Program-made: the position numbers and the translations under genes
Source: Trichormus sp. ATA11-4-KO1
GTDB lineage: Bacteria > Cyanobacteriota > Cyanobacteriia > Cyanobacteriales > Nostocaceae
Direction: 5' to 3'
NCBI GenBank assembly: GCA_019358915.1
Contig: JAHHIM010000010.1
Coordinates: 79,297-143,296 of the forward strand
Length of the DNA stretch: 64,000 bases
Part shown: one piece after another, positions 13,608 to 49,308 of the stretch
Position numbering within the stretch: position 1 is the stretch's first letter
Layout of the letters: every line of letters begins with the position of its first letter
The notes under the pieces: model-generated
What the model saw: only the letters and a program-made list of their open reading frames with translations
Database searches by the model: none
Told to the model about the DNA's origin: nothing

Positions 13608-15899
13608 TTACGCTTCGATAACCACCCGGAGGTTACCGCGTTTTTTGGCAACGCGACAAGCGGTAGTGCTACCAGAACGCTCAAATTCTAAATCTAGTAT
13701 GGTGGGGCCGACTCGTAAATTATGTAATGACAGCCGATTAATTGATTCTGGCAAAGCGGGGTCAATAATGCGCAAGCAGTTATTTTGAGCGTCGGGTACT
13801 AAGTTGACTACCATTTGTAGTAGTTGAAATATAGTACCAGTAGCCCAAGCTTGTGGTGTACAAGCAACTGGATATTGGACAGGTGTATGATGACCATTAC
13901 GTTCGTAACCGCAGAAAAGTTCTGGAGGACGTTGTAAGGGTTGTTGGCTAGTCATATCGAACAAACCTTGGAATACTTCTAAAGCTTGATCGATTAAACC
14001 GAGCGATCGCAATCCCATTGCAATCAGAGAATTATCATGAGGCCAAACTGAACCGATGTGATAGCCCATAGGATTATAAGCTGGGGACAAACTGCTCAAA
14101 GTCCTAATACCCCAACCATTAAACATATCTGGTGCGCGCAATCTCTCTGCCACACTATAGGCTTTTTCGGGTGTGAAAATGCCCAAATTCAAACAGTGAC
14201 CAGGATTAGATGTAATACTCTCTACTTGTTTACCATCTCCATCTAAAGCTAAAGCACAGAAATCTTGGTCTTCTATCCAAAAGTCTTTATTAAAACGCAC
14301 CTTGAGGTTTCTCGCCTCATCTAGCCAGCGTTCAGCCAAGTCAAGCCGCTTCTTCATCCTGGCTATTTCTGCTAGGCGAATTTTTGCTGCGTAGACGTAA
14401 GCTTGTACTTCACTTAGAGCGATCGGCCCGTTGGCTAACTCTCCTTTGCGGTCTACAATACAGTCACCAGAATCTTTCCATCCTTGGTTAGCTAGACCGC
14501 GTTTAGATTTACGGTAGTAGGTGAGATAACTGGTTTGTTGGAGATGGCGATCAATCCACTCCATCGCCGCTAGAGCATTCGGCCAAAGTTTCTCTAGGGT
14601 TTCTTGATCATGAGTCCAAGCGTAGTATTCAGCATACAACATCAACCACAGAGGTGTGGCATCAACTGTGCCGTAGTAGGGTGTATGCGGAATTTCTTGA
14701 CAACGAGCCATTTCCCCGAACCGCAACTCGTGCAAAATCTTACCTGGTTCTTCTTCGCGCCAGTCATCCTCGGTTTTACCTTGGTATGATGCTAGTATCA
14801 TTAGGGTTTCTTTGGCAATTTGGGGATTTAACATCAAGGTTTGGGAAGCTGTAATCAGCGAATCCCGCCCGAATAATGCCGAAAACCAAGGCACACCTGC
14901 GGAAACAGTCTTATTCTTGCCAAAAGACTGACGCAATAAATACATATCTTGCTCGGCTCGCTCAATCACACGATTGAAGATACTTTTATCTGATCTAATC
15001 TGTGTAATTTGCTGTACCCAGTGCTGCTCTTCCATCAACTCAGCAGCTTTGGCTTGTCCTAAGGTAAAAGCTGCACTCACCGTGGAACTTGGCTTGTTGT
15101 TGGTCAACATATTCAATCGATAGCCCAGTTTTTGGGTTTCGTGAGAAGCCAAATCCAACCGCCAAACCGCAGTGTAACCTTTGAAATAGTCTGGTTGGCG
15201 ATGCTGGAATTGGATACGAGATTCCATCAGTAAGCCGTCTAAACCTTGATAGGCCAATGTCAAGGATTTTTCTGGCTGTGCGGGGGGTTGACTATGTAAG
15301 GGCGAAATCCCATCACCGACAAAATGTGCCCCTTCCGCAAACGCAGGTTCCATTAAGCGTAAAAGTCTACCCCGTTGTGATCTTTGGGCACCGCGAACTT
15401 CAAATAAATCAACAAAATCGGCATCAAAGCTAATACTTAATTCAAAACTGACGGTAGTTGTGCTGTAATTAGACACCTCTATTTCTTCAAATAGTGCCCC
15501 ATTGAGAACTATTTCCCGGCGAATTCCCACAGTCTCGGCTCTTAGGTGTTCGTCAATTCTCGGGTTAGTACACAGAACTGACAGTGAAAACCCTTTTTCA
15601 GCAGTACTGCTGAGGAGAATAGGCGATCGCCCTTCAATTTGCAACTCCAGACGATTGAGAAACCGGGTATCACAGCAAAATAGTCCCACGCTGGGGTTAC
15701 CATCGTTGAGGGAACAACCAGAAATGTTCCCCATTGTATCCGTCACCAAAAATAAATCATCATCTTTAGCCGTCAGAGTTGGTTGTGGTTTTTCACCTAC
15801 AACACAAGGCCACTCCGAGATAGATAATTGTTCTGCGGGAATAAAAGTTTTTCCATCCAGGAAGATTGTTTCCGGGGTTATTAGTGTATCCGGTGTCAT
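13608..15899 (-). CDS. Amylo-alpha-1,6-glucosidase (glycogen debranching enzyme family)
   Basis: AGVPWFSALFGRD, EEPGKILHE, NQGWKDSGD, YHIGSVWPHDN, PQAWA. Confidence 0.9.
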   Translation of the reverse strand: MTPDTLITPETIFLDGKTFIPAEQLSISEWPCVVGEKPQPTLTAKDDDLFLVTDTMGNISGCSLNDGNPSVGLFCCDTRFLNRLELQIEGRSPILLSSTAEKGFSLSVLCTNPRIDEHLRAETVGIRREIVLNGALFEEIEVSNYSTTTVSFELSISFDADFVDLFEVRGAQRSQRGRLLRLMEPAFAEGAHFVGDGISPLHSQPPAQPEKSLTLAYQGLDGLLMESRIQFQHRQPDYFKGYTAVWRLDLASHETQKLGYRLNMLTNNKPSSTVSAAFTLGQAKAAELMEEQHWVQQITQIRSDKSIFNRVIERAEQDMYLLRQSFGKNKTVSAGVPWFSALFGRDSLITASQTLMLNPQIAKETLMILASYQGKTEDDWREEEPGKILHELRFGEMARCQEIPHTPYYGTVDATPLWLMLYAEYYAWTHDQETLEKLWPNALAAMEWIDRHLQQTSYLTYYRKSKRGLANQGWKDSGDCIVDRKGELANGPIALSEVQAYVYAAKIRLAEIARMKKRLDLAERWLDEARNLKVRFNKDFWIEDQDFCALALDGDGKQVESITSNPGHCLNLGIFTPEKAYSVAERLRAPDMFNGWGIRTLSSLSPAYNPMGYHIGSVWPHDNSLIAMGLRSLGLIDQALEVFQGLFDMTSQQPLQRPPELFCGYERNGHHTPVQYPVACTPQAWATGTIFQLLQMVVNLVPDAQNNCLRIIDPALPESINRLSLHNLRVGPTILDLEFERSGSTTACRVAKKRGNLRVVIEA

Positions 15900-16370
15900 T
15901 AGCACAAGTTCCGTTTACAGGTCTATGTCAATAGGGTCAACAGGGAAAAGTCGCGCTGGAAGACTCTTTCAAGCCAAAAGTCAAATTAATAATCACATAT
16001 TGTTGCCAAAGGAGCAGGCATCAAACCTACACAACAAATCCTTATAAGAGTATATTTTTTATATCTGAAGTCAAGGTGGAAATATGATGATTTTTATCTG
16101 ATTAATCTACCACTCAAGCTTATAGGGCACAATGTACAGGGAATACTTAGTCAAGATACTCAAGGCACATTTTTTTGCCAACAAACTTATTCTTCACTCA
16201 GGAAGGAAGCACTATTTTTTGAAAGCCCAAATGTCAAGTTAGATACTTCACTCAAATAAACTTTGGCGCAGGCTGATAGTAGAGATGTCTGTTATACTGC
16301 TGGGCTGTTGGTGGGGGCGCAGCCGCAAGGTTGTCGGTTGGATGGTACAAAACTTAATCTAAAATCCAGC

Positions 16371-16402
16371 TTGACCTTGTACTTAGGTATAGGGTTTATC
16401 CT
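16371..16402 (+). promoter_or_regulatory. MerR-type promoter/operator
   Basis: -35 TTGACC (16371), 20-bp spacer, -10 TATCCT (16397); dyad ACCTTGTAC-TTAG-GTATAGGGT (7/9 symmetric). Confidence 0.8.
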
Positions 16403-16440
16403 TAAAGCATCCAGATCACTGCATCGGCGGAGTATTCAGG

Positions 16441-16846
16441 ATGCTGCAAGTTGGCAAGGTCTCCCGCAAAGTGGGACAAAGTGGGACAAACTCTATATTT
16501 CTATGAGCGCATTGGATTAATTCCAAAGCCCAAGAGAACTGAATCAGGCTATCGCTTGTACGAGGAGCAAGATATAGAGCGATTAGCCTTTATTACTCGT
16601 GCCAAAGCACTAGGCTTAACCCTTGAGGAGATCAAAGAGGTCTTATTACTTCAAAACGGCAAAGCACCTCCATGCCGCGAGGTTCATTCCAAACTGGTGA
16701 ATAAAGTCAACCAAATTGAAGAGGCGATCGCCCAGTTACAGGAATTGAAAAGTGAATTGTTACCCCTTATTCAGCATTGTGAAAATAACCTTGCTGAAGC
16801 AGGACAGTCCGCTAATTGTATTGTTTTTCAAGATAAACCGTTATGA
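16441..16846 (+). pseudogene. merR: MerR-family divalent-metal regulator, frameshifted by a 10-bp tandem repeat at 16467-16490
   Basis: ATG 16441 gives MLQVGKVSRKVG; the body QTLYFYERIGLI...SGYRLY...C-x34-C-x12-C is in the +1 frame. Confidence 0.75.
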
Positions 16847-17052
16847 AGCCAAAAGTTGCATTTTGGGCGAGTCTATCAGGGACAGCCATAGTCGCTCTAT
16901 GTTGCTTCACACCTGTTCTTGTTGTAACCCTGAGCGCGATTGGCTTCGGGGCTGTAGTGGGCTACCTAGATTACGTTTTACTACCTGCCTTAGTTGTGAT
17001 GCTGGTTATCACATTTATTTCGTATCGTCAGTACAAACACGGAGGAGTTTAA
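16843..17052 (+). CDS. merF: MerF-type mercury transporter
   Basis: GTAIVALCCFTPVLV...GYLDYVLLPAL signature; ATGA overlap with the merR stop. Confidence 0.88.
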   Translation: MKPKVAFWASLSGTAIVALCCFTPVLVVTLSAIGFGAVVGYLDYVLLPALVVMLVITFISYRQYKHGGV

Positions 17053-17054
17053 TA

Positions 17055-17546
17055 ATGACTGAATGCTGTTGTCCATCTTCATCACCTAAAGACAGTGAAT
17101 CTCGTTGGCAGCGTCTCTGCCCACAGGACGGGACAAAAGGAAAAATTGTCCAACTGATCACTTTAAAGAGTTTGCTAGTACCAAGCGCACTAGAGCAATT
17201 AGATTCAGCAAGTGCTTATGGGTTTTGTGCAAGCCCCAATTGTCCAGTTGTTTACTTTTCTGAGCAGGGGCAGACGTTCACAACTGATGATCTGAAAGTA
17301 CCTGTTTTCCAAAAAGATTTTAATGAGGATATTTCTGTTTGCTACTGTTTTGGTTGGAGTCGCCAACGCATCCGTGAAGAGTTCAGCCAGTTCAGCCAGT
17401 CAGTTGAAAGCAAGGTTATTGATATAATCACCACTCACATCAAGGCAAAACGCTGTGGCTGCGAAGTCAATAATCCTCAAGGTGCTTGTTGCTTAGGAAA
17501 TGTTAGATTAGTGACTGAACAAATCGTTGGAGAACTTGCTAAATGA
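17055..17546 (+). CDS. Cys-rich CopZ-N-terminal-like Zn/[2Fe-2S] (BFD-like) metallochaperone
   Basis: 163 aa with 12 Cys: CCC, FCASPNCPVVYF, VCYCFGW, CGCEVNNPQGACC; GGAGGA RBS. Confidence 0.8.
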   Translation: MTECCCPSSSPKDSESRWQRLCPQDGTKGKIVQLITLKSLLVPSALEQLDSASAYGFCASPNCPVVYFSEQGQTFTTDDLKVPVFQKDFNEDISVCYCFGWSRQRIREEFSQFSQSVESKVIDIITTHIKAKRCGCEVNNPQGACCLGNVRLVTEQIVGELAK

Positions 17547-17553
17547 TGTCGCA

Positions 17554-17640
17554 GTATAACAACCCGGTTGGAGCGGACTGTTGAAAGCTGCTGGCGGTGA
17601 TGCAAAAGTTAGTAGCAGCCGCTCAACCGGAACGTTGAAT
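17554..17640 (+). other. attC recombination site
   Basis: R'' GTATAAC, 5 nt, L'' GGTTGGAG (8), central region, L' CTCAACC (7), 5 nt, R' GTTGAAT. Arms CCGGTTG[G]AGCGG[A]CTG / CAGCCGCTCAACCGG leave two extrahelical bases. Starts 7 bp after the stop codon. Confidence 0.85.
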
Positions 17641-17950
17641 GTATATTGGGCGTAGTAGCTGATTATTTGAAACCTCACGATGCTAGCAAATGGATAAACA
17701 AAACTTGGGTGAAGATCAAAGCGAGTGTAACGAAATGCTACAACACACCAGGGTGGGACCAATGAATGTATTGCCATTGTTGGTCTAGGCTGGGAAATTG
17801 TTCCCACGCTGCCACTATAACTTTGTAGAAAGTGCTGTTCAAAATTCTTTACATATTCCCACTGTTTGCTGCACTTGAGAGTCCATTGTAATTTGTACAA
17901 TGCAGCTGTGACGCGAATCTTGTCCAGATTGGGCTTCTTTAACGATATTC

Positions 17951-19960
17951 ATGAGCATTTCGACTTCCGTGCTGAGTGATCTGCTACAGTCCATACCTTA
18001 CCTGCGGCCCCAGCTATATTTCAAAGCTTCACTAACGGCCCTCTCCCACGCGATGGAAGATCAGGTTTTGGCGGCGACTTTAGACCAGCCTTTAGTAATT
18101 GCTAGCTTCCAACGAGAGCGATACTATCGCCAAGAGGCGCATCGCTATCAGCGATTAGCTTTGCGTAGTAATCAAATATATGTCTTATCCGCACCGGAAA
18201 CGGATTTCACCAACAGTTCGGAATACTATGAAAAAATTGCCTTTGAGCCAGAAGATTTTTTAAGTCAAGAGTGGCATTTGGTGGTAATCGCTGATAACTA
18301 TGCTACTTGTTTAGTTTGTCGGGAAAGCCTTGGTTCCATTGCCAAAAATCAGCAGATACCAGATGTCAGTCCTGGTCTAGACATGGATACTGCTCGGAGG
18401 TTTGAGGGAATTTGGACATCAGAACGGGGAGTTAGCCTCAAAGCAGCCGAATTGCTCTTAGACAGGATTTTGGTTTACAGACCAGACCTGGCAAAGAAAA
18501 TTCAAAATGCACGCCAGAGGTTTGGTATAGGGGGTAGCCGCAACTACTCCCAGACTGCACAAATCACTGAGTTTGCTTGTGACATTGATACTGACCCCTT
18601 TGTGCAGCGTTTGGTGACTTATCTGCAAGCTAGTCAGTACAAATTACATAAAGCTTATCGTTCAATTACTGCCCAAGCACGCAAAGAACGTTTAGTCAAC
18701 TCTATTAGTACTGCCATTCGGCGATCGCTTGACCCCCACGAAGTGCTACAAATTGCTGCACAAGAATTGGGGCAACATTTAGGGGCTAGCCGTTGTTTAA
18801 TTTACCGCTCTCCCACCATAGATACTCCAGCCGAAATTAAACACGAGTTCTTGACTCCCGGTGTTGTATCGATGAGTGGGCAAACCTGGGAGCTAGATAA
18901 AAATCCTTTATTTCAGGAAGTAGTAAAAAATGGTGAAGGCGTTTGTGTAGCTGATACTCAAACTGACCCCCGCGTTACTAGTTCGACCACATTATCCCTA
19001 ATTGTCAAAAAATTCGCGATTCGTTCTTGGCTGATCGAACCAGTATTATTTCAAGGGCGATTGTTGGGGATCGTAGAATTACACTATTGCAGCCTACCAC
19101 CACACGAGTGGCAGGCAGGGGAATTGGATTTGGTAAAAGCGATCGCTACCCAAATGGGAGCAGCCTTGATTCAAGCAGAAGCCTACGCTAACCTAGAAGA
19201 CCTCAATCAACAGTTAGAAGCCCTCGACCGCACCCGCAGCAACTTAATCGCCATTACGGGACACGAACTCCGTACCCCCCTATCCACAATTCAAGTGTGT
19301 TTAGAAAGTCTCGCCACTGAACCTGATATGCCTGTAGAGTTGCAGCAGGTAATGTTGAGTACTGCTCTTTCCGACTCAGAACGGATGCGGAAACTAGTGC
19401 AAGATTTCCTCACTCTTTCTAACCTAGAAAGCGGTCGAGTGGAATGGCATCCAGAATCCCTCACCTTAGAAGAGTGTGTAGAGTTAGCTCTCAGCCGACT
19501 TCGCACCCGTTCTTCAACAGAAAAACTCCCCCAAGTCAAAACTCAAATTGCCCAAAATCTGCCTTTAGTGAGAGCCGACGGTGATTGGCTGGTGGAGGTA
19601 TTAGCCAAACTTGTAGATAACGCTTGTAAATTTACACCACCCGAAGGAAAAATCACAATTACAGCTACCCAAAACGACAATCAGATGGTTGAAGTGACAG
19701 TAGCTGACACTGGACGCGGTATCGAAACCAATCGTCTAGAAATCGTTTTTGACCGTTTCTATCAAGAAGAAGGAGCGCTACGGCGTACCACTGGCGGTAC
19801 TGGTTTAGGGCTAGCAATTTGCCGCCAAATTGTCAATGGCTGGGGCGGTGAAATTTGGGCAGAATCAATGGGTAAAGACCAAGGTAGTCAGTTTCACTTC
19901 ACTATTCCCATTGCCCAGGTGAGCAAAGAGGAAAAGCGGTCGAAAGTCAAGAGTAAGTAA
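17951..19960 (+). CDS. DICT-GAF sensor histidine kinase
   Basis: KASLTALSHAMED (DICT), GAF domain, HELRTPL H-box, DNACKF, DTGRGI, GGTGLGLAI. Confidence 0.9.
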   Translation: MSISTSVLSDLLQSIPYLRPQLYFKASLTALSHAMEDQVLAATLDQPLVIASFQRERYYRQEAHRYQRLALRSNQIYVLSAPETDFTNSSEYYEKIAFEPEDFLSQEWHLVVIADNYATCLVCRESLGSIAKNQQIPDVSPGLDMDTARRFEGIWTSERGVSLKAAELLLDRILVYRPDLAKKIQNARQRFGIGGSRNYSQTAQITEFACDIDTDPFVQRLVTYLQASQYKLHKAYRSITAQARKERLVNSISTAIRRSLDPHEVLQIAAQELGQHLGASRCLIYRSPTIDTPAEIKHEFLTPGVVSMSGQTWELDKNPLFQEVVKNGEGVCVADTQTDPRVTSSTTLSLIVKKFAIRSWLIEPVLFQGRLLGIVELHYCSLPPHEWQAGELDLVKAIATQMGAALIQAEAYANLEDLNQQLEALDRTRSNLIAITGHELRTPLSTIQVCLESLATEPDMPVELQQVMLSTALSDSERMRKLVQDFLTLSNLESGRVEWHPESLTLEECVELALSRLRTRSSTEKLPQVKTQIAQNLPLVRADGDWLVEVLAKLVDNACKFTPPEGKITITATQNDNQMVEVTVADTGRGIETNRLEIVFDRFYQEEGALRRTTGGTGLGLAICRQIVNGWGGEIWAESMGKDQGSQFHFTIPIAQVSKEEKRSKVKSK

Positions 19961-48976: not shown

Positions 48977-49160
48977 AGTTGCACTGCGACGTTGGTGACT
49001 GCCATCAAGTTTTTTGATCTATGTCTTTAAAGAAAAGGGAAGCTAACAGTTCTCGTGGCAGTATACCGGGCATGTACCCGGAAACTTAAAACGATGAACG
49101 TCGGCACCCACCTGGTTTAACCAGGTCATAAACTTAGGTAAAACGGCGTTGCGGTGAACT
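48977..49160 (+). ncRNA. ssrS: 6S RNA (6Sa)
   Basis: Directly downstream of purK (the usual cyanobacterial position); TATAAT at 48966; 5' AGTTGCACTGCGACGTTG pairs with 3' CGGCGTTGCGGTGAACT; ~185 nt. Confidence 0.88.
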
Positions 49161-49308
49161 TAAAATTATCAGCTCCTAAAGTTAGCAAAGACTTGGGAAG
49201 CTCTAATTATTAAAATTAGTAAAAAATTAATGTCAAGGTAAAGCAAAAAAATTTATTTTGCCTTTTTTAAGTTATCAAAAATCAATAATGTTGAGCAACT
49301 TTATACTT

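Follow-up and report, generated by a model that had tools for sequence, protein, structure and literature searches.

A three-gene, metal-operon-type integron cassette inserted singly at a chromosomal GTT in the cyanobacterium Trichormus sp. ATA11-4-KO1

The window analysed here, a 64,000-nucleotide stretch of the genome of Trichormus sp. ATA11-4-KO1 (assembly GCA_019358915.1, contig JAHHIM010000010.1, positions 79,297 to 143,296), raises the question of how three metal-related genes followed by a single attC site came to lie between two host genes that are transcribed away from each other. The initial annotation had read these genes as a whole metal-response operon that was packaged as a solo integron cassette and had entered the chromosome by crossover at a GTT triplet. 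Our analysis bore out the 1343-bp unit with its three genes (16292-17634; features are collected in Table 1), which has a GC content of 44.5%, compared with 41.7% for the host genome. The unit is a genuine integron cassette at a non-integron site. We further consider it very probable that it is a cyanobacterial cassette (leader, promoter, merR, merF, CopZ-N-like gene, and attC) that was inserted singly at a chromosomal GTT and whose intact function is that of a soft-metal operon.

Table 1. Features of the cassette locus (positions in the 64,000-nucleotide window)
Feature	Position	Strand	Details
Flanking host gene, glycogen-debranching-type glycoside hydrolase	13608..15905	-	Annotation; outside cassette
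Left junction	16291..16293	+	Host base G16291 supplies the G of the target GTT; crossover between 16291 and 16292
Inserted cassette	16292..17634	+	1343 bp; breakpoints from empty alleles
Cassette 5' leader, conserved	16292..16370	+	Aligned in 6/6 copies; first bases complement R'' and the bases preceding R''
Predicted MerR-type promoter	16371..16402	+	-35 TTGACC 16371-16376; 20-nt spacer; -10-like TATCCT 16397-16402
merR-family regulator, frameshifted	16441..16846	+	True ATG 16441; early TGA 16504-16506; Pfam MerR_1 alignment begins at position 16 of the 69-position model
merF, small membrane transporter, 69 aa, CC motif	16843..17052	+	NF033565 85.1 bits, cut-off 50; PF11431
CopZ N-terminal-like putative Fe-S/Zn metallochaperone, 163 aa	17055..17546	+	NF047645 127.1 bits, cut-off 100; PF18423; PDB 2HU9, E 1e-9
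attC, 87 nt	17554..17640	+	R'' 17554-17560, L'' 17567-17574, L' 17621-17627, R' 17634-17640; host DNA from 17635
Flanking host gene, DICT-CHASE6C-GAF sensor histidine kinase	17951..19960	+	Annotation; outside cassette

The site at 17554-17640 is a real attC. It starts 7 nt past the stop codon of the last gene and contains the AAC/GTT triplets, paired R and L boxes, unpaired spacer, and extrahelical bases of such sites. The anatomy originally described for it (an 87-nt site after the last gene, with two extrahelical bases and the same stem) stands, except that the boxes have 6-nt rather than 5-nt spacers, since covariation places the first extrahelical base at G17570; the second is A17577. The bottom strand folds at -15.5 kcal/mol (z -2.64), with 2 of 200 shuffles equally good. 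When G17570 and A17577 were left unpaired in an alignment of 23 related sites (from the host genome, relatives, and one array elsewhere), 89.6% of cells were paired and two-sided changes occurred in 12 of the 18 stem pairs, which none of 500 shuffles and no slid control equalled. Kinship among the 23 sites can inflate such covariation counts; six pairs with two-sided changes were present among the five orthologous attCs alone. The register was chosen on pair 20-74, which is kept in 23/23 sites, the alternative register being paired in 10/23 and unpaired in 13/23. The site scored 76.1 bits (E ~4e-13) on a covariance model, R2, built from 19 sites that exclude this site and its four orthologues; all our attC models are our own, derived from cyanobacterial sites found by similarity or pattern rather than taken from IntegronFinder. 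A generic hairpin scan for attC was dropped because its 3232 candidates were mostly repeats, and motif scans and covariance models were used instead. The first extrahelical base on the bottom strand of an attC is usually G. At this position all 23 cyanobacterial sites have C, which may represent a preference of the cyanobacterial IntI.

At the left end of the unit, GTTATACTGC at 16291 is, as originally noted, the exact reverse complement of 17551-17560 (10/10 bases). This 10-mer has seven occurrences in the 5.97-Mb host genome, and ~0.002 are expected per 4 kb. The initial annotation had rebuilt the empty target and suggested looking for it in related strains, and our search of 41 genomes showed that site to be real, with the predicted breakpoint. 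In a relative of the same genus (G001) the two flanks, 15700-16294 (91%) and 17634-18200 (96%), match as adjacent pieces, homology stopping at the left junction, and the empty junction is GTCTG/TTAAATG (the slash marks the crossover), one base off the prediction. In a member of another genus (G019) it is GTCTG/TTGAATG. The insert is absent at the junction in all five aligned relatives (G001, G019, G014, G002, and G009); in the last three the alignment spans the insertion point without the insert, but the target GTT is not kept. The empty allele in these relatives implies that the empty state is ancestral and that the crossover fell between G16291 and T16292. The exact breakpoints in G001 and G019 strongly support a solo cassette inserted by G/TT crossover at a secondary site. 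That an unrelated recombinase or illegitimate recombination made the insertion, with the attC as a passenger, is extremely improbable: it would accord with the want of an intact IntI in this genome, but both ends of the insert lie at the G/TT point, as do the ends of cassettes found in arrays, and no target DNA is duplicated beyond the shared GTT. The joint of 16291 to 17634 was absent from the assembled contigs of four sequencing runs, a result uninformative on excision since contigs drop rare forms. In another genome the same two flanking genes are separated by ~19 kb (L162, G003:C6:1304400-1324399) with two weak tyrosine-recombinase matches and no attC. Elsewhere in the window, a 6S RNA gene at 48978-49161 is the sole Rfam match.

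The target is unlike attI, and the cassette is a SALIN (a single attC lacking an integrase) at an attG-type site. In agreement with the initial annotation, an attC scan of the full 64 kb with filters off and an IntI search revealed no intI, attI, or second attC in the window. Contig C10 likewise has no IntI-like gene, and holds one attC (150 of ~1200 candidates scored). The locus thus has one attC with no other att site or integrase nearby, the composition of a SALIN, and with no intI nearby and fewer than two attC it is neither a complete integron nor a CALIN. At the crossover the target is GWT, reading TG/TT in the rebuilt site, G001, and G019, while its positions +6 to +9 (TGTA) match two of the four bases of the CRGM hotspot motif, which comes from the E. 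coli hotspots of a different integrase, IntI1. As a reference for attI, we derived a 28-base motif by comparing the DNA upstream of a related cassette (L037, see below) with an integron remnant on host contig C25, where the motif-like sequence (G000:C25:7507-7534, L119) is a palindrome followed by TAAATAG/TT. Of 151 family genomes, 86 contain the motif, and the reversed control has no match in any. The motif also lies upstream of five of the six intact intI genes found in 100 relatives, on which basis we regard it as the Nostocales attI. Its being so much commoner than intact intI (86/151 versus 6/100) indicates that most of these Nostocales integrons have lost their integrase. Against this motif the window target scores -44.8, compared with 36-49 for the training sites, and 29% of the 216,061 GTTs in the genome score as high; the L037 site scores 40.4, partly by construction.

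Orthologous intervals bear on two other accounts of the site. As neither attC nor the attI motif occurs in any of 17 such intervals, we rejected the locus as an integration hotspot. The same 17 intervals, the dissimilarity of the target to attI, and the base-exact joining of both flanks in G001 and G019 make it very improbable that a decayed integron or CALIN has left this site as its final trace, despite remnants being common in this host (on C5, C25, and C73) and the other five copies of the cassette lying in arrays or at attI.

Which integrase could have acted? The search for an IntI-type recombinase suggested by the initial annotation found no full-length IntI in the host genome (G000, a 73-contig assembly), only broken pieces outside the window: C5 has residues 92-313, C25 has residues 1-33 joined to 235-313, and C37 has a scrap. 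No IntI over the cut-off was found in G001, G019, G041, or G042, and full-length IntI is present in 6 of 100 family relatives. The earlier proposal of an integrase acting in trans therefore holds only if the enzyme was a since-broken, transient, or donor-strain copy. That the intI pieces are 93-97% identical to an intact relative, together with one attI and six attC besides that of the cassette (seven clear sites and one or two weak ones, 150 of ~1200 candidates scored), points to an active intI in the recent ancestry of the host. This evidence also weighs against a different route, in which IntI acted in another strain and the insertion then arrived with its flanks by transformation and homologous recombination, without any integrase having acted in this lineage. 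We consider that route unlikely, although the lack of an intact intI in G000 and the rarity of full-length IntI among family relatives would favor it. Under the preferred reading of direct insertion, IntI would have recombined the folded bottom strand of the attC of an excised circle with the double-stranded target, crossing over between the G and TT of an ordinary chromosomal GTT, and the integrase was probably the host's own before its intI broke, or a passing copy. The host genome has several other integron loci. At G000:C25:5193-8622 (L119) a remnant comprising an internally deleted intI, attI, and two attC lies between two near-identical cupin-like genes; at G000:C5:123297-124158 a 5'-truncated intI adjoins an attC in a decayed integron locus; two attC with an eroded attI region are present at G000:C73:19223-21145; and a single attC is present at G000:C13:57362-57448. 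Empty-site checks of the C73 and C13 loci in G001 met contig breaks or different content.

Other copies of the cassette show it to be a movable unit. Four other full copies (L037, L038, L199, and L201) start at the same base, 16291, as does a partial one (L140), and the lineage is found in three arrays, at one attI, and at one secondary site. Of the 257 loci that encode the third protein, the best 80 were examined, and among these an attC is present only at L037 and L038; their DNA similarity to the window runs from exactly 16291 into the attC (84-86% and 78-80%, respectively). The L037 cassette sits at the Nostocales attI motif, whereas that of L038 (Gloeomargaritales VI4D9) is in an array of eight attC; L199 and L201, on metagenome contigs, have the same three genes (80% and 84%). 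The cassettes of L038, L199, and L201 each have a different attC upstream and their own attC at the end. In L140 (G225) the leader, promoter, and merR directly follow an attC and are succeeded by an MTH895/ArsE thioredoxin-like gene, the contig ending before any 3' attC. With a single secondary site among six copies, the broader claim of the initial annotation, that operon-sized cassettes are dispersed to secondary GTT sites, is borne out by one case, the other five being located in arrays or at attI. None of 72,556 plasmid records covers 80% of the cassette. Its promoter pattern was found in one of 400 other genomes of the phylum and in three metagenome stretches, one of them identical to the window. 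The L038 array (L038:1539-5315) includes several short ORF-less cassettes with a repeated 5' leader and adjoins a transposase-like ORF.

In a tree of the third protein (50 rows, 47 of the 80 loci and three more; root unsure), the five cassette copies form one branch (98/90) among cyanobacterial relatives. The tree supports the cyanobacterial origin that had been suggested from a HIP1 site within merR. That site exists, the only one in the cassette (at 16724), but all five full copies share it at an identical position, and as a single inherited site it is by itself weak evidence (the genome rate is 1 per 1213 bp). Two copies with an additional merT-merP fusion are nested inside the three-gene copies, for which one gain of merTP inside the cassette is the simplest reading, given the unsure root. 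The converse, that the three-gene form arose by a local deletion of merTP, was rejected, because the three-gene set recurs in L199 and L201 and because merF and the third gene are joined on a soil contig (X3, record 12). The cargo variants on the shared scaffold are thus merF with the CopZ-like gene, the same with merTP, and the thioredoxin-like gene. We tentatively raise the possibility, itself rather doubtful, that a self-regulating scaffold (leader, MerR promoter, and merR) is reused across Cyanobacteria, with cargo gained or swapped between fixed ends, and is seeded into chromosomes by rare transient IntI activity, serving as a main entry route for mer-like transport operons, which are said to be absent from cyanobacteria. 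If true, this would provide a traceable lineage for how multi-gene cassettes are built. Soil contigs from runs X3 and X4 share the first 39 bases of the cassette (window 16291-16329) after an attC-like end, beyond which they diverge from it, so the leaders of cassettes may be a shared motif.

The mechanism is known, though seldom documented. SALINs and attG insertion have been published (Loot et al., 10.1101/2022.09.11.507474), with 3400 SALINs reported in 2469 of 21,105 genomes, and those authors proposed that natural SALINs are insertions, with no empty allele shown. The locus described here resembles theirs in its one cassette and one attC, the lack of intI and attI nearby, the GWT target, and the crossover after G; it differs in that the empty allele is in hand, in that three genes come with a predicted regulated promoter where their cassettes depend on a host promoter, and in a target without the full CRGM motif. 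As Loot et al. cite it, the aadB cassette at secondary sites in RSF1010 and pRAY is likewise a complete natural cassette at a non-attI site, although it is plasmid-borne, consists of a single promoterless resistance gene, and comes from Proteobacteria. The accessible parts of Cury et al. 2016 (PMC4889954) and Ghaly et al. 2021 (PMC8618304) record integrons in Cyanobacteria and some cassettes with two ORFs or their own promoter, and give secondary-site integration as one origin of CALINs; in the former, natural single attC sites are set aside as possible false positives. The attC anatomy is shared with CALINs and sedentary chromosomal integrons, as far as these partial accounts describe them, but here there is one attC and three ORFs with a regulator, and the cassette is longer than usual (the median coding sequence in such chromosomal integrons is 362 bp, according to a portion of PMC5371416). 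Our literature search, which reached few subscription papers, found no published description of this merF/metal-operon cassette. What is new is the base-precise natural proof, the self-regulated operon cargo, and the gain or swap of genes inside one cassette lineage. Cassette insertion outside integrons had been shown mainly in laboratory E. coli; here, in a phylum distant from Proteobacteria, a single lineage is linked to an attI, an array, and an ordinary site in the chromosome, for which the empty allele is base-exact. Carrying its own promoter, the cassette would need no Pc, and a cassette with its own regulated promoter can escape the expression problem of random insertion. The change of gene content between fixed ends bears on cassette genesis. 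These results confirm and extend a known mechanism rather than overturn it.

With respect to the metal handled, an intact cassette would have a divalent soft-metal sensor with three cysteines that turns on a small uptake and chaperone pair. Judged on sequence, Hg(II) was our first guess, and we give it an even chance. In favor of mercury, MerF scores above the cut-off of its equivalog model, a MerT-MerP-like fusion (itself below the MerTP cut-off) is added in two copies, and the best solved relative of an intact MerR orthologue is the Hg-bound MerR of B. megaterium (4UA1). The cysteines of this orthologue are Cys78, Cys113, and Cys126. Cys78 aligns with MerR Cys79, the extra ligand missing from CueR, and two aligned cysteines are kept, while the third follows the second at a distance of 12 residues, against 8 in MerR, whose Hg ligands are Cys79, 114, and 123. 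Were the metal Hg(II), its reduction would be left to a MerA-like enzyme encoded elsewhere; merA is absent from all five full cassette copies, and no MerA exceeded the cut-off in any of five genomes (best genomic match 389 bits, cut-off 454).

A serious alternative, to which we give somewhat under an even chance, is that copper (or Cd/Zn), not mercury, is the metal handled, in which case the MerF-like protein would transport that metal and the Fe-S CopZ-like protein would serve as reductase or chaperone. The lack of merA agrees with this, as does the match of the third gene to the CopZ N-terminal family. The orthologue does not discriminate among regulators, scoring 94-100 bits with the CueR, CadR, ZntR, and MerR models alike, all below cut-off (95 against 151 bits for the MerR equivalog). 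In addition, a survey of the genes beside homologues outside cassettes, which covered 72 of 145 ORFs at 25 chosen loci (L140 contributed one of the 72), identified multicopper oxidases (L042, L053, and L058), CopM (L058), and a Zn/Cd ATPase (L057), along with merTP. Judging from the partial texts of PMC4551924 and PMC6741143, the cassette resembles Gram-positive-type mer operons in having merR at the head of a co-directional operon, a 20-bp spacer with a dyad, MerF and, in two copies, MerT-MerP, and differs in the lack of merA, the added CopZ-N-like gene, and the spacing of the third cysteine. In the accessible text of PMC6741143, Singh et al. describe cyanobacterial mer genes as not organized as operons, with no transporters in Synechocystis.

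The description of a whole operon was not borne out, as merR is frameshifted and the operon is damaged in this strain. The frame from the ATG stops after 21 codons, the lesion being a 10-nt tandem duplication (16467-16486) in place of 9 nt that the five other copies all have. At this point merR is in frame in L037, L038, L140, L199, and L201; in L038 a separate lesion fuses merR to merF. Contigs of sequencing run X1, which may be the source of this DNA, show the same frameshift. The rest of merR has no further break, and its differences from L201 are mostly at third positions (22, compared with 12 and 10 at the others), which suggests recent damage. Translation restarting at TTG 16451 could yield a protein without the first HTH helix. 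The predicted promoter was missing from the output of a sigma-70 scan that took spacers of 16-18 nt; mer promoters have spacers of 19-20 bp, according to the portion of PMC4551924 at hand. Its spacer holds a 9-bp dyad (16374-16395, 7/9 complementary), and the same layout precedes all 10 homologous merR genes examined. In the rest of G000 we recovered a single weak match to the MerR operator, with three mismatches. Given the long spacer and the loss of a working activator, the operon is most likely near its basal level and largely silent in this strain. Another record, P0010 (source name Fischerella thermalis), has a MerR that is 96% identical to the L037 protein over the first 100 residues and then has an unrelated tail; it is probably another broken copy.
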